Assembly (NCBI GenBank): GCA_902826705.1
Contig: CADEFY010000007.1
Coordinates: 1-25,210, forward strand
Length of the DNA stretch: 25,210 nt
Source of the DNA: an uncultured bacterium
GTDB taxonomy: Bacteria > Eisenbacteria > RBG-16-71-46
Reading direction: 5' to 3'
Shown: positions 1,970 to 23,548 of the stretch, piece after piece
Numbering within the stretch: the first letter of the stretch is position 1
Layout: the number at the start of each line of letters is the position of its first letter
Position numbers and translations under genes: made by a program
Notes under the pieces: model-generated
What the model was told of the DNA's origin: nothing
The model's database searches: none
The model's input: the letters and a program-made list of their open reading frames with translations, nothing else

Positions 1970-3001
1970 TCACTTCCCCAACGCGACGCTGGTGCCCAGC
2001 AGCAGATGGTCGCCGGCCAGGATCGTCGCGGACTCGCTGTGGCTCCAGAGTCGCGCCTGGTAGAGCGCCAGCACCGACAATCCGGGCAGCACCTCCACCG
2101 ACACGCCGGGGGTGAGGAACAGCGATCGCGAGCCCGAATGCAGCGACTCCCCATGCGACACGGCCTCGCCTGCTGCAGCATGCTCGCGGGCCTCGTCGGC
2201 GCCATGCGCGGCCCAGTTGAGCTGCGCGAGCAGCGTGACGCGTGGCGCCACCGCGACGCCGGTGGCGAGCGCGGCCTGCAGCTCCTCGCCCATGCGGTAG
2301 TCGTCGGTGCCGAGGCCGTTCCAGCGCATGAGCACGCTGGCCGAGACCGGCAGCGCACGCGACCACGGCAGCGCCTGCGACACGACCGCACCGGCGAGCC
2401 AGTCGGTGGAGCCGCTGCCCGGCCGCGCCGCGGGCTCGAGGTGCGACTCGAACCCGAAGTTGCTGCGCTCCTGATCGGGCACGTGCTGCCGGCCCGTGGG
2501 CAGCTTGACGCCACCCTGCAGCGTGACGCGCGGCAGCCTGGGGCGCTGCAGTGCGCCGCACTGCGCGAGCAGCGTGGCGTCGCCCAGTCCCTGGTACTCG
2601 AACGTGTCGAGGAACCGCGCGTCGTAGCGCGGTACGTGGCGCAGCCAGTGCCGATGCTCGCGCTTCAGGTAGGGGAGCGAGGCCGACAGCGTCCACCGCG
2701 CATTGAGGCGCATGAGCCCTTCGGCCACCCACGACCGCGTCCGCGTGTACAGCTCCACCTCGCCGTGTGCCTCGGACTCGGCGATGAGCGCCTCGAGCGT
2801 GGTGGCCGCGGATCCGTTCCACAGCCGGTCCTGCGTGACCTCCTGGTAGCGCAGGTCGAACGTGAAGCGGCCGCTCGTGGCGCCGGCCCGCACGATCGGG
2901 CAACCCTCGGCGCCGCAGGTCGCATGCAGCGGAGCCGCCGCGAGTGCGCTGAGCAGCAGCGCGCCGCCCGCGGCGCACCACGCGCGCACGCGCGCGATCA
3001 C
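1970..3001 (-). CDS. Predicted exported protein, possibly an outer-membrane beta-barrel. Hypothetical.
   Basis: ORF 1970..3001 has a GTG start that overlaps the upstream stop (shared at 2998-3001). The N-terminus MIARVRAWCAAGGALLLSALAAAPLHA is a signal peptide. The mature region is Gly/Ser/Leu-rich with alternating hydrophobic stretches. No catalytic motif was recognised, so the function call is weak. Confidence 0.6.
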   Translation of the reverse strand: MIARVRAWCAAGGALLLSALAAAPLHATCGAEGCPIVRAGATSGRFTFDLRYQEVTQDRLWNGSAATTLEALIAESEAHGEVELYTRTRSWVAEGLMRLNARWTLSASLPYLKREHRHWLRHVPRYDARFLDTFEYQGLGDATLLAQCGALQRPRLPRVTLQGGVKLPTGRQHVPDQERSNFGFESHLEPAARPGSGSTDWLAGAVVSQALPWSRALPVSASVLMRWNGLGTDDYRMGEELQAALATGVAVAPRVTLLAQLNWAAHGADEAREHAAAGEAVSHGESLHSGSRSLFLTPGVSVEVLPGLSVLALYQARLWSHSESATILAGDHLLLGTSVALGK

Positions 3002-3852
3002 GGCAGCAGGATGCAGCGCCGCACCACCCGCTCGCCGCCCGAGACGACGGACACGAAGTGCAGCCCCGCGCCGGCGCGCAGCGCGCGAGGCGCGAGGCGC
3101 ACTTCGTGCGCACCGGCGGCGAACTCGCCGGCGGCCAGCTCCGCGACCTCGCGCCCCTGCACGTCATGCAGCGCGATGCGCGCGTGCGCGGCGCTCGGCA
3201 GCGTGAACGCGATGCGCGACTCGGTGCGCACGGGGTCGGGCGCGATCGGCGCGAGCGCCAGGTGCGGCGCGGTCGGCGGCACGGCCATCGACAGCAACTC
3301 CACGGCCGCGTCGTCGATCGCGGGACCCCAGGGGCTGGCGTCGAGGCTCGTGAACCGGATCACGGTGCTCGTGCTCGTGGCGGTGAACTCGAGGCTCCGC
3401 AGCTCCCAGCCCATGTCCCAGTGCCACGCCTCGGTGTTGTCGAACGTGAACTCCTGCTGGGCCGGCCCCGCCTGCACGCGCAGGTGCTTGATCGTCGGGC
3501 TCGAGAACGGCTCGCCCGACTGCCAGAACGTCAGCCGGTAGCTCGCGCCCACGGCGGTGCCGAACGCCTGCTCGATGCTGCCCGGGCCGCTGCTGCACAG
3601 GGCCAAACTGCGCGCACCGACCTTGGGGGACCAGTAGTTGTCGGTCACGATCGTCACCGCGCCCGCGGTCACGGTCCAGCCGGTGAGCGCCGTGTTCCCG
3701 GGCGCCACAGCCTGCACCGCCTGCTGCAGCGGGATCACCGGCCCCTGCTCGAAACCGCCGTTGGTCAGGAGCTGGGCGTGCGCGCCGGGCGCCGCGCAGA
3801 CGAGGATCGCGACGAGGCGGCCGGGCAGGACGAGGCGAGCGAGGGTTCTCAT
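2998..3852 (-). CDS. Secreted DUF642-like protein with a C-terminal FlgD-Ig-like domain
   Basis: An internal ATG at 3852 gives MRTLARLVLPGRLVAILVCAAPGAHA, a signal peptide. This is followed by QLLTNGGFEQG, the characteristic start of DUF642 / choice-of-anchor C type domains. The C-terminal roughly 80 aa (PIAPDPVRTESRIAFTLPSAAHARIALHDVQGREVAELAAGEF...HFVSVVSGGERVVRRCILLP) are FlgD-Ig-like. The 45-codon N-terminal extension in the ORF track (start 3987) was rejected because it has no SD and precedes the signal peptide. Confidence 0.7.
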   Translation of the reverse strand: MRTLARLVLPGRLVAILVCAAPGAHAQLLTNGGFEQGPVIPLQQAVQAVAPGNTALTGWTVTAGAVTIVTDNYWSPKVGARSLALCSSGPGSIEQAFGTAVGASYRLTFWQSGEPFSSPTIKHLRVQAGPAQQEFTFDNTEAWHWDMGWELRSLEFTATSTSTVIRFTSLDASPWGPAIDDAAVELLSMAVPPTAPHLALAPIAPDPVRTESRIAFTLPSAAHARIALHDVQGREVAELAAGEFAAGAHEVRLAPRALRAGAGLHFVSVVSGGERVVRRCILLP

Positions 3853-4147
3853 GTCGGGCCTCTGGTTCGTCGGGGCGAGTCGGAGGGCGCGCGCGGCCGC
3901 GCCCGGAGAGGCTAGCACCGGCGTGCCCGCGACGCTGCGATGAAGCGCCTCCGGGGGGCTCGGGGCGCTCCCGAGGTTCAGCGGCATCGGACGAACGCGG
4001 CGGGGAGCGGCCCTCGGGACGATGGAAAGCCATTGTAAAGTGCCACCCGGAAGTCCATGCTATGGGGGAGCTTGGTCGCATCACGGGCTCTCCCGGTGGC
4101 CGCCGACCGGCTGCCGGACTCACCCGCTCTGTCACGGAGGAATCCCC

Positions 4148-4897
4148 ATGAAGCGTCGTTACGCGTCGGTCCTGGCCTGTGGTCTCGCCGGTGTCCTCGC
4201 CTCCACGGCCGCGTTCGCCGGCCCCAAGCCGTTCGGTGAAGTGAGCACGCTGTCGGGCGAGCCCATGCAGCGCATCAACACGCTCGGCGTCGAGAGCGCC
4301 AACGCCACGTGCACGCTGGGTGTGCTGGGCGCGCCGGCGTTCTTCTTCAACTACCTGCTGCCTCCCAACGACGCCTACTACACCAAGATCAGCAGCGCGG
4401 ACTGCTCGGCATGCACGAGCCCCGGCGGGATCGAGGTGGTGTCCGCGGACATCTTCCTCAACTTCCGCGTCAACTGCACGATCCCGGTGCGTGTGGCGCT
4501 GGTGGGTGCGCAGGGTGATGCGGGTTGCCGCACGCCGGACCCGAACAACCTGCTGTGCGCGCCGATCACCTACAACCTCAGCCCGGGCGCTGCGGGCAAC
4601 TTCATCTTCACGATGCCGCTGCCGGCGGGCTGCTGCGTGTCGGGCGACGCGTTCGTCGAGATCACGTTCCTGGCCAACGGCGCGGGCTGCAGCACCAGCA
4701 CGACGATCCCCCGTCTGATCACCACCGCCACGTGCGACCCGTGCACGCAGTACAACATCTACCCGGGTGGCAATGACGAGTGGTGCAGCGTGCTGCCCCC
4801 CGGCAACTTCGTCGTGACGGCCGCGGCGAACTGCTGCAACATCGTGCCCGCGCTGCCGAAGAGCTGGGGCCAGCTGCGCATGATGTACCGCAGCTGA
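4148..4897 (+). CDS. Secreted cysteine-rich protein (14 Cys in the mature chain) with a C-terminal ...SWGQLRMMYRS tail
   Basis: The internal ATG at 4148 is preceded by GGAGG (4137-4141). MKRRYASVLACGLAGVLASTAAFAG is a Sec signal peptide. The mature protein has 14 cysteines, including two CC pairs. No known domain was recognised. The ORF-track start at 4022 was rejected because its N-terminal extension has no signal or SD logic. Confidence 0.75.
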   Translation: MKRRYASVLACGLAGVLASTAAFAGPKPFGEVSTLSGEPMQRINTLGVESANATCTLGVLGAPAFFFNYLLPPNDAYYTKISSADCSACTSPGGIEVVSADIFLNFRVNCTIPVRVALVGAQGDAGCRTPDPNNLLCAPITYNLSPGAAGNFIFTMPLPAGCCVSGDAFVEITFLANGAGCSTSTTIPRLITTATCDPCTQYNIYPGGNDEWCSVLPPGNFVVTAAANCCNIVPALPKSWGQLRMMYRS

Positions 4898-5195: not shown

Positions 5196-5984
5196 ATGAT
5201 CCGAATGCGACCCCTCGCCGCTCTCGTCCTCGCGCTCGCGCTCTCGGCTCCGGCCGCGTCGGCGCAGGTGCCCATCATCGTGGGCGCCAGTTGGGATGGA
5301 CCGGCCAACAGCCTGCAGAACATCCTCGACGCCGAGTACGGCCCCGGCGTGATCGATGTGCTCACCGACTACATCGGCGCCAACGCCAGCGATCCGGATC
5401 CGTTCTACTGGACCGACGGCGGCTTCACGGCGCTGATCATCCGCGAGGTGGCGGGCAACGAGAACAGCAACGTGATCGGCTGGTACAAGGAGACCGGTTC
5501 GGCGCCGGTCATCGACGGCATCGATGACGGTGTGGTGTTCACCGGCCCGTACAACGCCTCCAACCCGCCGGTCGTCGTGGCGCTCTCGAGCGTGCAGAAC
5601 TTCGGGTTCTACATGAACCCCAACGGCCCGGGCTCGGCCACCAATGCACCGGAGCCGGAACTGTTCTACACGAACCGCTTCTACAACGACATCGGGCCCA
5701 ATGGCTCGGGCGCGATCCACGTGCCGCTCGACGGCGATGTGCAGGCGCTGGTGTTCGACCTCTCCGCGATCCGCGGCCCCAACACGTGGCTCGTGTGCTT
5801 CGAGGACCTCGACGCCGGCTCCACGATCTCGGCGGTGTGCTGCGCAGCCGACGGCCTCACGCCTCCGGGCGGCACCGGCAACACCGATGATGACTACAAC
5901 GACCTCGTGTTCGAGGTCACGGCGACCGGTGTCACGCCGGTGCAGCCGGTCACCATGGGTGCGATCAAGCGCACGTACCGCTAG
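5196..5984 (+). CDS. Secreted protein with a DUF4114-like C-terminal region (DDDYNDLVF motif) and a ...MGAIKRTYR tail
   Basis: GGAGG lies at 5185-5189 before the ATG at 5196. MIRMRPLAALVLALALSAPAASAQ is a signal peptide. The D-D-D-Y-N-D-L motif near the C-terminus is, as I recall, characteristic of DUF4114 (PF13448). Confidence 0.75.
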   Translation: MIRMRPLAALVLALALSAPAASAQVPIIVGASWDGPANSLQNILDAEYGPGVIDVLTDYIGANASDPDPFYWTDGGFTALIIREVAGNENSNVIGWYKETGSAPVIDGIDDGVVFTGPYNASNPPVVVALSSVQNFGFYMNPNGPGSATNAPEPELFYTNRFYNDIGPNGSGAIHVPLDGDVQALVFDLSAIRGPNTWLVCFEDLDAGSTISAVCCAADGLTPPGGTGNTDDDYNDLVFEVTATGVTPVQPVTMGAIKRTYR

Positions 5985-10661: not shown

Positions 10662-12152
10662 TCAGGCCGCCGGGCGCTTGAGCTGCCGCGTCAGTTCCTC
10701 GGCGAGCGCACGCATGGGGTCGCCGGCCGCGAGCGTGCGCGCGGGTGCGGTCGGGGGCGGCCCGGGTGGCGGCGCGGGCGCCGCCGCAGCGGGAGTGCCG
10801 GCAGGACGCGCGCGGCGCTTGGAGGGCGCAGCCTCGTCCTGCGGCGCGGCCTGCGACGCCGCGGCCGGTTCGGCCTCCGCCGCGGGCGCATCGAATCGCA
10901 GGAAGCTGGCCACCACCGGCACGCCGGTCGAGGCGACGCGTGTCGCGCTGGTGTGCACCACGCCGAGCGGCGCACTGGCGAGCAGGTTCTCGATGCCGTC
11001 GCCGAGCCGCCGGCCATGCGAGGCGAGCCAGCGCGTGAGGATCGAGCCGGCATCGGGGGCGATCACCGCGCACAACACGAGCGGCGTCGATGGCAGCGTG
11101 GCGAGGCTGGGCGCCGCGCTCGCGCACTCGAACACCACGCGCTCGGGCGGGGCGATGCGCAGCATGTCCAGCGCGTCGGCGAGCGTGCAGTGCACGAGCG
11201 CGCCCGCGCCATCGGCATGCGCGTAGCGCGGCGATTCGGCCACCAGCAGCGTCTGACCGCCGCGTTCGGCGAGCTGGCGCTCGAGCAGCCCGTGCAGCAG
11301 CGCGTCGGCCGCCTGCGCACTCGGCGCTCCCACGAGCACGAGGCCCGACGTGGTCTCGATCAGCGCGGGCAGCGCCTCCACCGCGCCGCTCCAGCGCGCG
11401 GGATCCGCGGGCGCGAGGCCGGCGGCGCGCACCCACAGGGTCTCGGGCGGCCCGGCCAGCCGCGTCACATCGAGCATGCGGCCATCGACCGGCACGGTGC
11501 GGCGCTGCGGGCGCTCGCTGCGCGGATCGACGGGCGGCCATGCGGGATCGAGCAGACGCGAACGCAGTTGCTCGAAGCTGCCGGGATCGAGCGGCTGCTG
11601 CGCCAGCGAGCGCCACTGCCCGGCGATGCGCGCGCGCGGGATCTGACCCGCACGATAGAGGAGCGTGTCGCCCGTCTCGCGCAGCACCGAGAACGGAGTG
11701 CCATCATCGCCCACGGCCGAGGCGTCCTGCGCCTCGGTGACGACGGAGTGGAACGCGTCGCGCAGGTCCTGGAACATGCCGAGCTGCGACTGCAGCCGCT
11801 CCGTGGCGCTGTCGCCCTCGGCCGTGAGGCCCGCCTCGTCCATCTGCCGCGCGGCCTCGAGCATGATGCTCTCGGTGGTCTCGGTGATCCCGCGCGCGCC
11901 ACCCACGGCCTCGTGCTTGAACTCGAAGCGGCCTTCCTTCCACGCGAAGATCCGGTACGCCGCGGCCTCGCCCTGCTTGTGGTCCTCGTCGACCGCGTTG
12001 GTGAGCTGGCCCTTGTCGAAGTACAGGTAACAGCGGCGCTGGCCCTCGCTCAGCGACAGCACTCCCGTGGCGCCGTTGAGCATGAGCAGCTGGCCCAGGT
12101 CGAAGAGCCCGATCAACCCGAGTTCCCCGGCCAGTGCGACTGGCGCCGGCAT
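10662..12152 (-). CDS. PATAN (DUF4388) domain protein with a Pro/Ala-rich C-terminal tail
   Basis: The N-terminus GELGLIGLFDLGQLLMLNGATGVLSLSEGQRRCYLYFDKGQL is the DUF4388/PATAN signature. The start ATG (12150-12152) overlaps the pilT stop (12152-12154) by 1 nt. Confidence 0.7.
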   Translation of the reverse strand: MPAPVALAGELGLIGLFDLGQLLMLNGATGVLSLSEGQRRCYLYFDKGQLTNAVDEDHKQGEAAAYRIFAWKEGRFEFKHEAVGGARGITETTESIMLEAARQMDEAGLTAEGDSATERLQSQLGMFQDLRDAFHSVVTEAQDASAVGDDGTPFSVLRETGDTLLYRAGQIPRARIAGQWRSLAQQPLDPGSFEQLRSRLLDPAWPPVDPRSERPQRRTVPVDGRMLDVTRLAGPPETLWVRAAGLAPADPARWSGAVEALPALIETTSGLVLVGAPSAQAADALLHGLLERQLAERGGQTLLVAESPRYAHADGAGALVHCTLADALDMLRIAPPERVVFECASAAPSLATLPSTPLVLCAVIAPDAGSILTRWLASHGRRLGDGIENLLASAPLGVVHTSATRVASTGVPVVASFLRFDAPAAEAEPAAASQAAPQDEAAPSKRRARPAGTPAAAAPAPPPGPPPTAPARTLAAGDPMRALAEELTRQLKRPAA

Positions 12153-13240
12153 CAGGCGGCCTGCGCGCGCGGTCCCGCCTGCGCGATGCGCTCGAGCGAC
12201 GGCAGGAGGTCCTTGCTCGACAGATGCGGCGCGGCGTCCTGAGGCGTGACGCGGCCCTCGCGCACGAGGTTCATGAGCGAGTCATCCATGGTCTGCATGC
12301 CGTCCTTCTTGCCGGTCTGGATCACCGACTGGAGCTGGAAGATCTTCTTCTCACGGATCAGCGCCGAGACCGCCGGCGTGCCGACCAGCACTTCCATCGC
12401 GAGCACGCGGCCCTTGCCGTCGGAGCGCTTGAGCAGCCGCTGCGCGAGCACGCCCTTGAGCGACTCGGACAGCATCAGCCGCGCCTGCGCCTGACGCTCG
12501 CCCTCGAACGAGTCGAGGATGCGGTCCACGGTCTGCGTGGCGCTCATGGTGTGCAGCGTGCCGAACACGAGCTGGCCGGTGGCGGCCGCCGTCATGGCGA
12601 GCGCCATGGTCTCGGTGTCACGCAGCTCGCCGACCAGGATCACGTCGGGATCCTCACGCAGCGCGCCGTGCAGCGCCTTGGCGAAACTGGGCGTGTTGCG
12701 GCCCACCTCGCGCTGCGTGATCAGGCACTGCTGGTTCTGGTGCCGGTACTCGATCGGATCCTCGATCGTGAGGATGTGCTTCTTCTGCGTGCGATTGAGG
12801 TGGTCGACGAGCGCGGCCATGGTGCTCGACTTGCCCGTGCCGGGAGGTCCGGTCACCACGATCAGTCCGCGCGGCGACTCGGTGAGGCGGGCCAGATGCT
12901 CGGGAACGCCGAGCTGGTCGAGCGTGAGGATCTGGCTCGGCAGCACGCGGAACGCACCGGCAGGGCCCTTGTACTGCTCGTAGATGTTGCAGCGCACGCG
13001 CACGACGCCCTGCACCTCGTACGAGAAGTCGACGTCCTTCTGCGCATCGAACTTGGCGCGGATCGGGCCGTCCATGATCTCGAACAGCAGCATCTCGCTC
13101 ATCTCACGCGTGAGCGGCTCGTAGGGGATGGGCGTGATCTCGCCATTGATCCGCACCATGGGCGGCGAGCCCGTGGTCATGTGCAGGTCGGATGCACCAA
13201 GATCCTTGACCTGCTTGAGGATGGCATCGATACGAGCCAT
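12152..13240 (-). CDS. pilT: Type IV pilus retraction ATPase PilT
   Basis: The internal ATG at 13240 gives MARIDAILKQVKDLGASDLHMTTGSPPMVRINGE... The Walker A motif is GPPGTGKSST. PilT-family His and Asp boxes are present, as is the ...MQTMDDSLMNLVREGRVT C-terminal region. The upstream extension in the ORF track was rejected. Confidence 0.85.
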   Translation of the reverse strand: MARIDAILKQVKDLGASDLHMTTGSPPMVRINGEITPIPYEPLTREMSEMLLFEIMDGPIRAKFDAQKDVDFSYEVQGVVRVRCNIYEQYKGPAGAFRVLPSQILTLDQLGVPEHLARLTESPRGLIVVTGPPGTGKSSTMAALVDHLNRTQKKHILTIEDPIEYRHQNQQCLITQREVGRNTPSFAKALHGALREDPDVILVGELRDTETMALAMTAAATGQLVFGTLHTMSATQTVDRILDSFEGERQAQARLMLSESLKGVLAQRLLKRSDGKGRVLAMEVLVGTPAVSALIREKKIFQLQSVIQTGKKDGMQTMDDSLMNLVREGRVTPQDAAPHLSSKDLLPSLERIAQAGPRAQAA

Positions 13241-13419
13241 GCGGGTGCGTTCCCGTCCGGAGTCCTGGGCGATGGGGGCGGATGCCCCCGACATGTCCCC
13301 GTGGGCATCGGCCGATCCGCGGCCGCGCTGGACCGGGTTCTGCGGCACCGCGCTCGCGCCTCAACCTGCGCTCCCGCCGGGCCGATGACCCGGGCATGCC
13401 CCTCGGCAGGAAGGAGACC

Positions 13420-14220: not shown

Positions 14221-16263
14221 ATGCACCAGCTATTGCCGGCGCGGTTGAAGCCGGGTGTCACTCCGGAGGCGCTGCCGGGGCCCAGGGCGGCGGATGCGCC
14301 GGCGGCGCAGGGCGCGGCGGGGCGTGTGATCCGCGGCGGCGCGTTGATCTTCTGGGATCCCAAGGTGCCGGGCCGGAAGCTCGATGCGATCGACACCGAC
14401 CAGATCACTCCGGCCACCGACTGCGTCTCCGAGAGCCTCGAGACGCTCGATGAGCGCTGGAAGGCCGGCAGTTTCCGCTACCTGATGCCCGACTTCCGTG
14501 CACGGGTGCATGCGGGGCAGACGTTCCTCGTGGCCGGCGACCGGTTCGCCATCGGCAGCTCGCGCGAGATGAGCCCGGCGGGACTCAAGGGCGTGGCCGA
14601 GGAGGTCGGGCTCGAGATGGTCGTGGTCTGCGGCCAGAACATGGGCGACATCTTCCGCCGCAACAGCTTCAACCTCGGGCTGCAGGTGGTGCAGAGCCCC
14701 GAGGCGGTGATCGACGCGCAGGAGGGCGACCAGTTCGAGTTCGACACCGACTCGCGCCAGCTCACCAACGTCACGCAGAACCGCCGCTACGACGCGGTGC
14801 CGCTGACGCCCAAGGAGGACGAGATCCGCCGCTCGGGCGGCATCTTCGCGATCGGGCGGCGCGAGTTCCGCGACTCGGTCACGCGCCAGCCGCGCATCGA
14901 GTGGCCCGACGCGGCCACGGCGCGCCGGCTCACCACCACCGAGCAGATCCTCTGGGCACACCGGGTCGACAAGGACGCCGACGTGCGCGCGGGCGCCACG
15001 CTGCGCGTGTACGCCGACCTGCTGCCGGCCTCCGACGGCACCGCGCCGTTCTCGATCCACACGTTCAACCAGATCACCGGCGGCGAGAGCATCTGGCCGC
15101 GGCAGATCGCGATCGCCAACGACCACTTCGTGTTCACGGGCCTCGAGGCCGACGACAAGCAGACCTCGATCGGTCGGCAGTTCGCGGCCATGCACGGGAT
15201 CGAGCGGCCGTACTACGCCACGCCAGGCGACGGCATCTTCCACTTCTACTTCCCCGAGCAGGGGCTCGTGCAGCCGGGCATGATGATCCCCGGCGCCGAC
15301 TCGCACTCGCGTGCGTACGGCGCCTACGGCGCGATCGGCATCGGTGTGGGCTCCACCACGCTCGGGTTCGGCTGGAGCACGGGCCACATCTACACCACGG
15401 TCGCCAAGCCGCGGCGCGTGGTGTTCAAGGGCGCGCTGCAGCCGTGGGTGACGGGCAAGGACCTGGTGCTCGAACTGCTGCGGCGCTGGGGCGCCAAGCA
15501 GTCTCAGGGCATGAGCGTGGAGTTCGTCGACGCCGACCAGCAGCTGCCGATCGCCTACCGCAACACGATCTGCAACATGATGGCCGAGGCCGAGAGCTAC
15601 AACGGCATCTTCGCGCCCGACGACATCACCTACGCATGGTTCGCCGCCAAGGGCATGCGCGACCTGCCATACCCGCGCATCGCACCCGGCGCGGACGTGG
15701 CGTGGGAGATCGACGAGGCGCTCGAGCTCTCGGACGTGCGCCCCATGATCGCCAAGCCGTTCAGCCCCGGCAACGCGTTCCCCGCCGAGGATGTGGCGCG
15801 CGAGCGCATCGCGTTCGACAAGGCGATGATCGGATCGTGCACCAACGGCGGGTACGACGACCTGCTGTCGGCTGCACTCGTGCTGCGCGCCGCGCGCGGT
15901 GCGGGCCGCACGCAGGCCGCGCGCGAGTTCGTGATCTTCCCCGGTTCGGGCGGCGTGCGGGACCGCATCGAACATCCCGACGCGCGGCTCGGCGGCGAGA
16001 GCATCGCCGAGGTGTTCCGTTCGGTGGGCGGGCAGATCCGCCAGAGCTGGTGCGGGCCGTGCTTCGGGCAGGGGCCCGACGCGCTCACCGCCGGCCAGCG
16101 TGCGATCACCAGCTTCAATCGCAACTGGACCAATCGCATGGGACTCGGCGGCGAGGGCTTCCTCGCCTCCCCCAGCGTGGTGGCGGCCAGTGCGATGCTC
16201 GGCTACATGGCGCCGCCCTCCGAACTCGGGCTCGCATGGGAGGCCGAGGCGTTCGCGGTGTAG
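14221..16263 (+). CDS. Aconitase-family Fe-S dehydratase with the swivel (LeuD-like) domain first and the catalytic (LeuC-like) domain last, in AcnB-like order
   Basis: GAGGAG sits 8 nt before the ATG at 14221. The N-terminal part has the LeuD motifs (IDTDQI, GSSRE, FRRNSFNLGL). The C-terminal part has aconitase catalytic motifs (GADSHS, GSCTNGG, CGPCFG; three cluster Cys). Confidence 0.7.
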   Translation: MHQLLPARLKPGVTPEALPGPRAADAPAAQGAAGRVIRGGALIFWDPKVPGRKLDAIDTDQITPATDCVSESLETLDERWKAGSFRYLMPDFRARVHAGQTFLVAGDRFAIGSSREMSPAGLKGVAEEVGLEMVVVCGQNMGDIFRRNSFNLGLQVVQSPEAVIDAQEGDQFEFDTDSRQLTNVTQNRRYDAVPLTPKEDEIRRSGGIFAIGRREFRDSVTRQPRIEWPDAATARRLTTTEQILWAHRVDKDADVRAGATLRVYADLLPASDGTAPFSIHTFNQITGGESIWPRQIAIANDHFVFTGLEADDKQTSIGRQFAAMHGIERPYYATPGDGIFHFYFPEQGLVQPGMMIPGADSHSRAYGAYGAIGIGVGSTTLGFGWSTGHIYTTVAKPRRVVFKGALQPWVTGKDLVLELLRRWGAKQSQGMSVEFVDADQQLPIAYRNTICNMMAEAESYNGIFAPDDITYAWFAAKGMRDLPYPRIAPGADVAWEIDEALELSDVRPMIAKPFSPGNAFPAEDVARERIAFDKAMIGSCTNGGYDDLLSAALVLRAARGAGRTQAAREFVIFPGSGGVRDRIEHPDARLGGESIAEVFRSVGGQIRQSWCGPCFGQGPDALTAGQRAITSFNRNWTNRMGLGGEGFLASPSVVAASAMLGYMAPPSELGLAWEAEAFAV

Positions 16264-17919: not shown

Positions 17920-18744
17920 TCAGCCGAGCAGCACGCGCGCGAACGCCGCCGCCAGTGCGATCCCCGCGAGCGCTCCGGCGACGCGCGTGAGGCCGCCCGC
18001 GGGCATGCCGCCGAGCCGCTCGCTGAGCGGCAGCACGGCGCCCAGCGCCAGCCCGGCGGCGAGTCCCGCCGCATGCGCCGTGTTGTCCGTGCTCGGCCGT
18101 TCGAAGCCGCTCGCGAACCCGGGCAGCGCCAGGAACAGCACCGAGGCCGCCAGCGCGCGGGCGCGCGTCGGGGCAAGCCGGTCGCGCAGTCGGAACGCGC
18201 CGGTGAGCAGCGCGCCTCCCATGGCGAACGCCACCCCCGAGCCGCCCACGCTCAGGCTCACGCCGCCGGCGTCCACGCGCGCGGCGCGCCACGCGAGGCT
18301 CGCGAGCGAGGCGGCCGTGCCGCCCCACGCGGCCGCGATCCACAGGCCCCAGCGCGTGAACACGCGCTCGACGGCCTGCCCGAGCACGAGCAGCGTGACG
18401 GCATTGAAGCACAGGTGCGACACGCCGCTGTGCAGGAACGTGGACGTGAGCGCGCGCCAGAGCGACGACCATGCGCCCGCACCCGTGACGCTGGCGCCAT
18501 GCGCGACCAGCGCGCTGGAGTCCGGTGCGCCGGGCGAGAGGCCCACGGCGACGGCGCTCATCGCCCAGCTCAGCGCGAGCACGACCGTGCCCCACGGCGT
18601 CACGTCCCCGACGGCACGCCACAGTTCGACCGGGGGCGGTTCGTCGGGATCGGCCTCGGGGAACGCCTCCTCGGACGGGAGCGGGGGCCCCGGCTCGAGT
18701 TCGCGCTCCGGGTCCGGATCGCGCGGCGAGGCGGGGATCACTTC
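17920..18744 (-). CDS. Rhomboid-family intramembrane serine protease
   Basis: GGSGVAFAMGG is the GxSG catalytic-Ser motif. A downstream TM segment carries His (…NTAHAAGLAAGLALG). Multiple TM helices are present. The start is uncertain. A GTG at 18744 overlaps the gpx stop by 7 nt. Alternative starts are a GTG at 18603 or an ATG at 18561. The Pro/Glu-rich N-terminal region would be cytoplasmic. Confidence 0.6.
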   Translation of the reverse strand, partial: EVIPASPRDPDPERELEPGPPLPSEEAFPEADPDEPPPVELWRAVGDVTPWGTVVLALSWAMSAVAVGLSPGAPDSSALVAHGASVTGAGAWSSLWRALTSTFLHSGVSHLCFNAVTLLVLGQAVERVFTRWGLWIAAAWGGTAASLASLAWRAARVDAGGVSLSVGGSGVAFAMGGALLTGAFRLRDRLAPTRARALAASVLFLALPGFASGFERPSTDNTAHAAGLAAGLALGAVLPLSERLGGMPAGGLTRVAGALAGIALAAAFARVLLG

Positions 18745-23056: not shown

Positions 23057-23548
23057 ATGCGCGTTCGCCACTCGATCCTCGTTCTGCTCGCCACCGTCGC
23101 GCTCGCTGGCTCGGCGCACGCGGCGACGGGCTTCTCCACCAACATGAACGGCTCGGCCGAGGTGCCGCCCAACGCCTCGACCGCGACGGGCAGCTCGACC
23201 TGCGTGCTGAACGACGCCGGCACGCAGCTCACCGTGTTCGTGCAGTTCCAGAACCTCAGCGCCAACTACTCCGCCTCGCACATCCACGGCTTCTCGGCGC
23301 CGGGCGTCAACTCGGGCGTGCGGTTCGGCTTCACGCCCACGCTGTCCAACGGCAACCGCAACGGCGTGTTCAACGGGACGTGGAACCTGACGGCGACCGA
23401 CGTCACCAACATGATCGCCGGGCTCTGCTACGTGAACATCCACACGACGGCATTCCCGGGCGGCGAGATCCGCGGCCAGCTCGCGGTCGACAACGCCGTC
23501 TCGAACACCCCCTCGACGTGGGGTCGCCTCAAGAAGCTGTATCGCTGA
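23057..23548 (+). CDS. Secreted CHRD-domain protein ending in ...STWGRLKKLYR
   Basis: GAGG sits 7 nt before the ATG at 23057. MRVRHSILVLLATVALAGSAHA is a signal peptide. The CHRD signatures are SASHIHG…PGVNSGV and YVNIHTTAFPGGEIRGQL. Confidence 0.75.
   Translation: MRVRHSILVLLATVALAGSAHAATGFSTNMNGSAEVPPNASTATGSSTCVLNDAGTQLTVFVQFQNLSANYSASHIHGFSAPGVNSGVRFGFTPTLSNGNRNGVFNGTWNLTATDVTNMIAGLCYVNIHTTAFPGGEIRGQLAVDNAVSNTPSTWGRLKKLYR

Follow-up and report, generated by a model that had tools for sequence, protein, structure and literature searches.

We analyzed a 25,210-nucleotide (nt) stretch of DNA from an uncultured bacterium of the Eisenbacteria (lineage RBG-16-71-46; GenBank assembly GCA_902826705.1, contig CADEFY010000007.1, positions 1 to 25,210 of the forward strand), referred to below as the window. 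Its G+C content is 72%. The gene under study, at positions 23057 to 23548, encodes an exported CHRD-domain protein whose C terminus, …STWGRLKKLYR-stop, is a short tail that recurs on two other exported proteins of the window. Our results show that the tail is a widespread C-terminal module, one carrier of which is the CHRD protein, and that it appears to be undescribed. The parts of the CHRD gene and the two other tail-bearing genes are listed below; confidence of the predicted structure is given as predicted local distance difference test (pLDDT) scores.

23057–23548, plus strand: gene of the tail-carrying exported CHRD protein, 163 amino acids; open reading frame (ORF) from ATG at 23057 to TGA at 23546–23548
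23057–23122, plus strand: Sec signal peptide, residues 1–22, MRVRHSILVLLATVALAGSAHA, with predicted cleavage between AHA and A, read from the sequence
23132–23482, plus strand: CHRD domain (PF07452), the cargo, residues 26–142, pLDDT 88–98
23486–23512, plus strand: flexible linker, residues 144–152, AVDNAVSNT, pLDDT 74 then 54, without regular secondary structure
23513–23545, plus strand: tail core region P-S-T-W-G-R-L-K-K-L-Y-R, residues 153–163, with TGA directly after it
4148–4897, plus strand: second tail-bearing exported protein, 249 amino acids, Cys-rich, ending …LPKSWGQLRMMYRS-stop; tail core at 4865–4891
5196–5984, plus strand: third tail-bearing exported protein, 262 amino acids, DUF4114-like (sub-threshold), ending …TPVQPVTMGAIKRTYR-stop; tail core at 5955–5981

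The match of the CHRD protein (C terminus …NTPSTWGRLKKLYR-stop) to PF07452 covered model positions 1–117 of 117 with E = 1.2e-27 and 97.5 bits against a cut-off of 24.1, which places it in the CHRD family. An identical copy of the 163–amino acid protein was found on 19 contigs, and the contig of the window is contained in sequencing runs from wastewater and groundwater. In its AlphaFold2 model, an N-terminal helix formed by residues 3–15 lies outside the CHRD domain. The second tail-bearing gene most likely starts at 4148 and not further upstream, and its product matched no family in the Pfam scan. The third protein had been taken for a DUF4114 protein in an earlier note made from the sequence of the window; the match, which covers only the last third of the model, stays below the cut-off (E = 0.022, 16.1 bits versus 27), and this assignment is withdrawn. 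The CHRD protein fits the definition of the tail family proposed here ("WGRIK-YR") at every position, and the other two fit it with W→M and K→R variants.

The sharing of the tail by three exported proteins of the window, as claimed in the earlier note, was confirmed when the six-frame translation of the window was searched with the regular expression [WM]G.[LIVM][KR]..[YF]R. Exactly three matches were obtained (4865–4891, 5955–5981, and 23519–23545), each zero or one codon before a stop, against a chance expectation of 0.007 matches per window, none adjoining a stop, in sequences resampled from the base-to-base transition frequencies of the window. The three 27-nt segments are identical to one another at only 13 to 17 of 27 bases; the likeness is therefore at the level of protein and is not that of a DNA repeat. 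Codon choice in the tail is fully degenerate, with all four Gly codons, all six Arg codons, and Ser encoded by both AGC and TCN, so that selection acts on the peptide; this codon variation also rules out that the similarity stems from an element in the DNA or RNA. Apart from the shortness of the motif, nothing speaks for chance or for common ancestry of the three proteins. The excess over the expected number of matches, the placement of all three next to a stop, the unrelated upstream sequences and folds of the carriers, and the hundreds of independent occurrences at stop codons described below refute such an explanation, to which we assign virtually no probability.

The extent of the tail was assessed by scanning one genome per species (185,579 species) with the degenerate DNA pattern TGGGGNMGNNTNAARNNNNTNTAYMGNTRR, which encodes W-G-[R/S]-[aliphatic]-K-x-[aliphatic]-Y-[R/S] followed by T[AG][AG]. 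Since T[AG][AG] stands for TAA, TAG, TGA, or the non-stop TGG, the pattern has a built-in control: chance matches should end on TGG in about one quarter of cases. The scan yielded at least 124 matches. Among the matches listed, 122 of 124 ended on a true stop, and neither of the two that ended on TGG had the upstream context of a tail. Conservation extended to positions on which the pattern set no constraint, namely, P at −17, T/V/S at −16, P at −15 (79 of 121), V/T/A at −14, E/R/Q at −13, and S/T at −10 (116 of 121). Because these positions are conserved too, the module is ~17 residues long and can be written as P-[TV]-P-[VTA]-E-x-[ST]-[ST]-W-G-R-[VIL]-K-[SA]-[LM]-Y-R. The positions equivalent to the linker of the CHRD protein are rich in Pro, Thr, Val, and Glu in 121 other tails.

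The tail has a strong preference for the C terminus. In ORFs of at least 80 amino acids from the scan loci, the motif occurred 137 times: 131 times directly before the stop, five times within five residues of it, and once at 13 residues, and it was never internal. The tail is also restricted to proteins with signal peptides: by a crude rule, 90 of 94 complete tail ORFs begin with a signal peptide–like or lipobox-like N terminus. As to the stop codon itself, TAG was much more frequent in tail genes (62 of 127) than in background ORFs of at least 350 amino acids (154 of 540) in the same high-G+C loci (L007 to L126), a background that may hold shadow ORFs.

A profile of 22 tail positions, built from 57 tails, was used to search 1.84 billion representative proteins with HMMER. 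At E ≤ 0.001, 980 representative proteins were recovered. The motif ended 1 to 2 residues from the C terminus in 131 of the 150 best matches and within 8 residues in 142 of them. The window tails scored 33.9 bits (CHRD), 28.3 bits (4148–4897), and 27.5 bits (5196–5984), values that are not independent of the profile, in which all three were included. Only 15% of the tails found independently in the genome scan reach the threshold; therefore, the true number of tail clusters is probably in the thousands. Two of the best 150 matches are clear false positives: P0142, a membrane-repeat protein, and P0174, a tape measure–like protein of 925 amino acids that matches the profile by chance through five repeats of …GWSALKALYRWSPLGVMQRGFG…. 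A homology search with a 40–amino acid alignment of 112 tails gave only 15 candidates and was of no use as a census. The possibility raised at the outset that the three window tails are the only ones is thus contradicted at the level of the phylum by both the scan matches and the profile matches.

Among the matches listed, about half of the record titles name Candidatus Eisenbacteria or Eiseniibacteriota, and the rest include metagenome-assembled genomes labeled "bacterium" as well as Krumholzibacteriia, Cloacimonadota, Fibrobacteraceae, Latescibacterota, Zixibacteria, Gemmatimonadota, Effluviviaceae, and a handful of odd labels. Bacteroidota, of which we estimate the genome collection to hold many species, had no genuine tail among the matches listed, the one match there being a TGG false positive. 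Tails were also seen on contigs binned as Limnocylindria, Udaeobacter, Actinobacteria RBG_16_64_13, Gammaproteobacteria, Phycisphaera, and Planctomycetia (L050, L060, L078, L089, L101, L058, and L109). For these, mis-binning seems more likely than true occurrence; horizontal transfer is the alternative. When 2.9 million viral contigs were scanned with the same pattern, only six matches were found. Five high-G+C contigs from IMG/VR (L131, L132, L134, L135, and L136) carry genuine-looking tails, e.g., …TPARPSTWGRVKGVYR, which may stem from host DNA within provirus calls or from phage genes that have borrowed the tag.

Tail genes are often close to one another, with two or more within 8 kb in 27 of 120 loci. 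One complete 4.7-Mb chromosome (OZ244210.1) has at least three matches to the strict pattern, and three 22-kb Eisenbacteria regions picked solely for an aconitase-family gene contain zero, zero, and one tail genes. These counts, a very small sample from which the inference is rough, suggest tens of tail genes per genome.

The cargo proteins are mutually unrelated, with a mean column identity of 7% upstream of the tail. Among 113 cargo proteins scanned, 41 Pfam families were matched, including NHL propellers, lamin-tail, beta-helix, NosD, cupredoxin, PD40, FG-GAP, DUF4394, and CHRD. The tail is thus modular, and the earlier proposal that it is independent of the cargo fold is upheld. On the other hand, the expectation that CHRD and DUF4114 would dominate the tail-bearing set failed: CHRD accounts for 1 of 113 proteins, and no family for more than 7. 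NCBIfam names among the cargo include the ScyF and PepA PEP-CTERM proteins, choice-of-anchor W, and ExeM/NucH nucleases, families known for interchangeable C-terminal anchors.

Several tail genes have recurrent surroundings. In L010, L012, L020, L034, L061, L091, and other loci, two tail genes are adjacent, the first product ending "…FL.PP..R..TWGGIKARYR" and the second "…YLFRHDGKID.QCPTPT…TWGRIKSLYR". This pair adjoins a large Ser/Thr kinase–like/TPR protein in L012, L034, L061, and L091; the kinase-like family is present in 13 loci overall. In another Eisenbacteria genome, a tail gene has a microviridin-type cluster (L139:17794–20052) at a distance of 300 bp; the cluster encodes two MvdD-type ATP-grasp ligases and a small precursor that is Inhibitor_I10-like.

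The loss in orthologs that would have counted against the earlier note did not occur. A metagenomic contig of a close relative (171 kb, of which 38 kb were read; L127) is syntenic with the window. Its ortholog of the CHRD protein ends …SSTWGRLKKLYR, that of the 4148–4897 protein …LPKSWGQLRIMYGS, and that of the 5196–5984 protein …TPVTPLTFGSIKRIYR / …TPLTFGSIKRIYR. A homolog of the latter in L060, 57% identical, ends …TPVEMVTFGSLKARYR. Among the 120 best CHRD homologs, which extend down to ~40% identity, the tail is found within six residues of the C terminus in 76. In an alignment of 78 CHRD homologs, W155 and K159 are at least 90% conserved. The tail is therefore retained both in the close relative and in most of the best homologs, and its conservation is that of a peptide. 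A minority of the tails among the CHRD homologs end Y-K instead. In one subgroup (P0051, P0052, P0057, P0060, P0061, P0064, and P0071), the linker before the tail contains an N-x-[ST] sequon (…PNATDVSSWGKIKALYR) that may be a glycosylation site.

Other CHRD homologs end right after the domain, and still others have a PEP-CTERM tail (VPEPST…hydrophobic…RRR) at the same point, after the conserved GGEIRGQ. PF07589 was recorded on eight of the homologs, and more PEP-CTERM tails can be recognized by eye, in agreement with the earlier statement that CHRD domains occur with such tails. A second case of interchange is provided by a beta-helix–like cargo family present in 31 loci, some members of which end in the tail and others in a type IX secretion system (T9SS) sorting domain of type A, at times within one locus. 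L026 and L039, two tail proteins, share 33 to 34% identity over ~300 amino acids with L018:754–3954. The latter and five other neighboring or paralogous proteins pass the TIGR04183 cut-off (six of six), which served as a positive control. Since paralogs and neighbors carry T9SS domains, these organisms seem to mark part of their cargo with a T9SS-type signal and another part with the short tail. The tail is thus interchangeable with two established sorting modules, in line with its earlier placement in the slot of a sorting signal.

In the AlphaFold2 prediction based on 78 homologs, pLDDT values of 88 to 98 for the CHRD domain fall to 74, 54, and 50 over the last 23 residues. A short unattached helix is drawn at residues 154–161 with low confidence. 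The drop in pLDDT and the unattached helix show that the tail is not part of the cargo fold. It has no hydrophobic stretch able to span a membrane, consisting of 9 to 10 residues after the linker, three of them charged, and the net side-chain charge of the last ten residues is ~+2.7. The helical hydrophobic moment is 0.43, compared to 0.39 ± 0.19 for shuffled tails; drawn as a strand, the tail has its three basic residues on one face.

Some proteins have several copies of the module. Tandem modules are found at the C terminus of P0141 (four copies), P0148 (five copies), and P0278, P0150, and P0240 (two copies each), and P0141, P0148, and P0278 have a lipoprotein lipobox. In P0209, one copy immediately follows the signal peptide and another is at the C terminus. 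The carriers of tandem modules belong largely to one NTF2/DUF4440-like family. In some tails, up to ~8 extra residues follow the motif.

To look for a partner of the tail, every ORF of at least 120 amino acids in the 120 loci was clustered. The clusters comprised cargo paralogs, the kinase-like family, which comes from one lineage in its 13 loci, and, in two loci, a C25 peptidase adjacent to a single tail family; none was general. The peptidase genes, L017:1856–5308 (plus strand) and L083:601–4047 (minus strand), encode members of the C25 (gingipain/PorU) family with a propeptide and a T9SS type A domain. In these two related loci, they lie directly downstream of a tail gene of the "INLDDTWFEG…SWGSIKAFYR" family. 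The arrangement could reflect synteny specific to the lineage, or it could point toward processing machinery.

The other genes of the window that were considered are as follows.

2998–3855, minus strand: exported choice-of-anchor C/DUF642 protein (TIGR04362, E = 2e-41), context only
14221–16263: aconitase-family protein, 83 to 87% identical to many proteins, those with an organism name all being from Candidatus Eisenbacteria (phylum Candidatus Eiseniibacteriota)
17920–18741, minus strand: rhomboid-family intramembrane protease (PF01694 on the ortholog), between aminotransferase and glutathione peroxidase genes

The rhomboid protease was considered as a processor of the tail, by comparison with rhombosortase and GlyGly-CTERM, and was rejected since the tail has no membrane span to cut. 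The C terminus of the 2998–3855 protein resembles T9SS/FlgD_ig domains below threshold (TIGR04183, E = 0.0099; PF13860, E = 0.006). The stop of this gene overlaps by 4 nt the start of 1970–3001 (minus strand), whose product, a signal peptide protein of 343 amino acids, had no family match in Pfam or NCBIfam. In the close relative, this pair recurs together with a 637–amino acid FlgD_ig protein, and several FlgD_ig-tailed proteins are located nearby, with PF13860 recorded on neighboring proteins. At 10662–13255 (minus strand), the window also contains a conserved pair consisting of a PatA_N (PATAN)-domain protein and a PilT-like T2SSE ATPase, which is present in three other Eisenbacteria regions.

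A common envelope partner is proposed for the tail because it is independent of cargo, is found on exported proteins, and is interchangeable with two established sorting modules. The tail would be a self-contained C-terminal docking tag, laid out as a Pro/Thr-rich linker followed by [S/T]-W-G-[R/K/S]-[I/L/V]-K-x-[L/M]-[Y/F]-[R/K], which is bound by this partner and fixes the protein in, or passes it to, its place in the envelope. We judge the chances of this explanation to be about even. In the case of the CHRD protein, the N-terminal Sec signal peptide would direct export to the periplasm, where the CHRD domain would fold by itself and leave the tail exposed on its flexible linker. A partner in the envelope, which may be a protein that binds peptides or a polymer, could then bind the tail, presumably in a non-covalent manner, and the protein would be held at, or handed on to, a defined place in the envelope. 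In Candidatus Eisenbacteria and allied phyla, the tag would match the role that PEP-CTERM and T9SS C-terminal domains have elsewhere. The near-invariance of W, G, K, Y, and R across phyla argues for a specific partner rather than for general physical chemistry. Tandem copies, the copy that follows a signal peptide, and the tolerance of extra residues favor docking or anchoring over a signal that is cleaved once.

Several observations weigh against the docking tag. Neither the window nor the 120 loci yielded a partner, receptor, or processing enzyme; of the dedicated sorting or attachment system suggested in the earlier note, the modular and conserved tail is supported, and the dedicated enzyme or receptor is not. 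The extreme preference for the C terminus would equally suit a secretion signal. Tandem copies are a small minority, ~6 of 150, and come largely from the one NTF2-like family. The predicted conformation of the tail is a helix of low confidence with a hydrophobic moment not above that of shuffled tails. Last, almost all carriers are uncultured.

The placement of the tail at the extreme C terminus of signal peptide proteins is also what would be expected of an outer-membrane translocation signal, read and maybe removed by a secretion machine, such as a signal feeding into T9SS or into another exporter. Within one cargo family, and in shared loci, the tail and T9SS type A domains replace each other, which is consistent with this possibility, as are cargo families typical of extracellular or surface proteins. 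Most of the carriers (Eisenbacteria, Krumholzibacteriia, Cloacimonadota, Fibrobacteraceae, Latescibacterota, Zixibacteria, and Gemmatimonadota) are assigned to the Fibrobacterota-Chlorobiota-Bacteroidota (FCB) superphylum, in which T9SS is found; in NCBI taxonomy, Eiseniibacteriota appears under "Bacteria candidate phyla." However, a module of 17 to 20 residues differs from the T9SS beta-sandwich of 70 to 100 residues, TIGR04183 and PF18962 do not match it, Bacteroidota contributed no genuine tail among the matches listed, and tandem and near–N-terminal copies are unusual for a transit signal. We consider translocation unlikely, though worth keeping in view. Direct anchoring of the tail in a membrane leaflet or lipopolysaccharide (LPS), with the tail acting as a cationic interfacial peptide flanked by aromatic residues and no protein receptor involved, is quite unlikely. 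C-terminal amphipathic anchors of this kind are present in PBP5/6 and MinD, and the positive charge, the W and Y at the two ends, the short helix at 154–161, and the avidity that tandem copies would add all fit such a mechanism. Yet, the hydrophobic moment does not exceed that of shuffled tails, nine residues are very short for an in-plane anchor, and near-invariance across phyla, including that of Gly at position 2, goes beyond the needs of lipid binding; known amphipathic anchors conserve physical character and not sequence.

The tail Lys could also be a site of covalent attachment to peptidoglycan. In Braun's lipoprotein (Lpp), L,D-transpeptidases join the C-terminal …K-Y-R-K to meso-diaminopimelate. 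The invariant Lys and the near-invariant Y-R ending recall this sequence, a minority of tails end Y-K, and the tandem-tail lipoproteins P0141, P0148, and P0278 would bridge the membrane to the wall as Lpp does. The Lys that is linked in Lpp is, however, the C-terminal one, while tails end mostly in Arg with the Lys four residues in; the resemblance is limited to four residues with no Lpp homology, and no association with L,D-transpeptidases was seen in the 120 loci. This makes a covalent link very unlikely. It is, in our view, extremely unlikely that the tail is unrelated to localization and instead marks proteins for degradation or quality control, being recognized by a tail-specific or PDZ protease of the periplasm. 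C-terminal peptides are read by Prc/Ctp and by the PDZ domains of the HtrA family, and HtrA-like Trypsin_2+PDZ genes are present in related Eisenbacteria regions, though such genes are ubiquitous. A degradation tag is hard to reconcile with its strict conservation on more than a thousand families of stable-looking structural or enzymatic secreted proteins, and both tandem duplication and the interchange with PEP-CTERM and T9SS domains point to localization.

A broader, more tentative idea can be put forward, which we consider possible but on balance doubtful. The tail may be the address label of an unrecognized sorting or attachment system with its own receptor or machinery, distinct from exosortase, sortase, rhombosortase, and T9SS. 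Such a system would serve tens of proteins in each genome and would operate in Candidatus Eiseniibacteriota and in uncultured phyla allied to it (Krumholzibacteriia, Cloacimonadota, Latescibacterota, Zixibacteria, and some Fibrobacterota). Shared C-terminal tags have led to envelope machines before, in the cases of sortase, exosortase, rhombosortase, and T9SS. The tag marks at least about a thousand protein clusters, and probably several thousand, in phyla known almost only from metagenomes, and neither Pfam nor NCBIfam, in the releases searched, contains it. In annotation, its presence marks a protein as exported and probably envelope-associated, and it defines the likely surface and periplasmic proteome of Eisenbacteria. 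Counts of the tag combined with phylogenetic profiling offer a handle for finding the machinery. With ~10 core residues and no membrane span, it would, provided that the proposed mechanism is right, be an unusually compact tag for targeting or display.

Isolated tails of 26 to 28 residues matched no Pfam or NCBIfam family at E ≤ 10, and the full proteins had no PEP-CTERM or T9SS match. Literature searches on the motif, on sorting or C-terminal signals in Eisenbacteria, and on T9SS in Eisenbacteria and Krumholzibacteria returned nothing relevant, although a description in sources outside these searches is possible. The "basic terminal domain" of Fibrobacter is a separately named paralogous module (FPm-1), which is reportedly longer; it is set apart from the tail by its description only.

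In function, the nearest parallels are PEP-CTERM signals and T9SS C-terminal domains. In PEP-CTERM as in the tail, a short C-terminal module is common to many unrelated signal peptide proteins per genome and is preceded by a Pro-containing motif ("PVE/TPT" in the tail, "PEP" in PEP-CTERM). The two occupy the identical slot in CHRD homologs, and their cargo overlaps (ScyF-like NHL, PepA-like, lamin-tail, DUF4394, and CHRD proteins). The tail lacks, however, the hydrophobic transmembrane helix of ~20 residues and the terminal Arg cluster, and it has tandem copies. Neither TIGR02595 nor PF07589 matched full tail proteins or isolated tails at E ≤ 10. The tail is therefore not a PEP-CTERM–type signal. 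No exosortase (EpsH) was seen in the window or in the 120 loci, and we know of no link between the tail and an exosortase. With T9SS type A domains (TIGR04183/PF18962, FlgD_ig-like), the tail shares genomes, loci, paralogs of the same cargo family, a C-terminal position with a basic-hydrophobic-basic ending, and a mostly FCB-grouped range of taxa. It differs in being a linear motif rather than a folded beta-sandwich and in its lack of genuine Bacteroidota carriers among the matches listed; TIGR04183, PF18962, and the type B model TIGR04131 did not match the three tail proteins, which thus fall outside this class. LPXTG, GlyGly-CTERM, and MYXO-CTERM signals differ from the tail, which has neither a transmembrane helix nor an NCBIfam match and belongs to none of them.

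Other similarities concern the way in which the tail may work. Like PDZ ligands and the peroxisomal targeting signal PTS1 (-SKL, read by the TPR domain of Pex5), to which it comes nearer in size than to the sorting domains above, it has a few specific residues near a free C terminus on a flexible, cargo-independent tail; it is longer than these and tolerates a few extra residues, and the analogy is functional only. The β-signal of outer-membrane proteins likewise lies at the C terminus and has an aromatic residue and a Gly close to its end, but tail cargo is soluble, the last residue of the tail is Arg and not aromatic, and its spacing is unlike G-x-x-hydrophobic-x-hydrophobic, which excludes the tail from that class. 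The …K-x-L-Y-R of the tail loosely recalls the …K-Y-R-K of Braun's lipoprotein, with no sequence match. Choline-binding repeats, SLH, and LysM modules are much longer than the tail, which is usually present in a single copy and does not match them in sequence. Like them, it can be repeated in tandem and is also carried by lipoproteins, an analogy that suggests tethering to a further envelope layer based on avidity.

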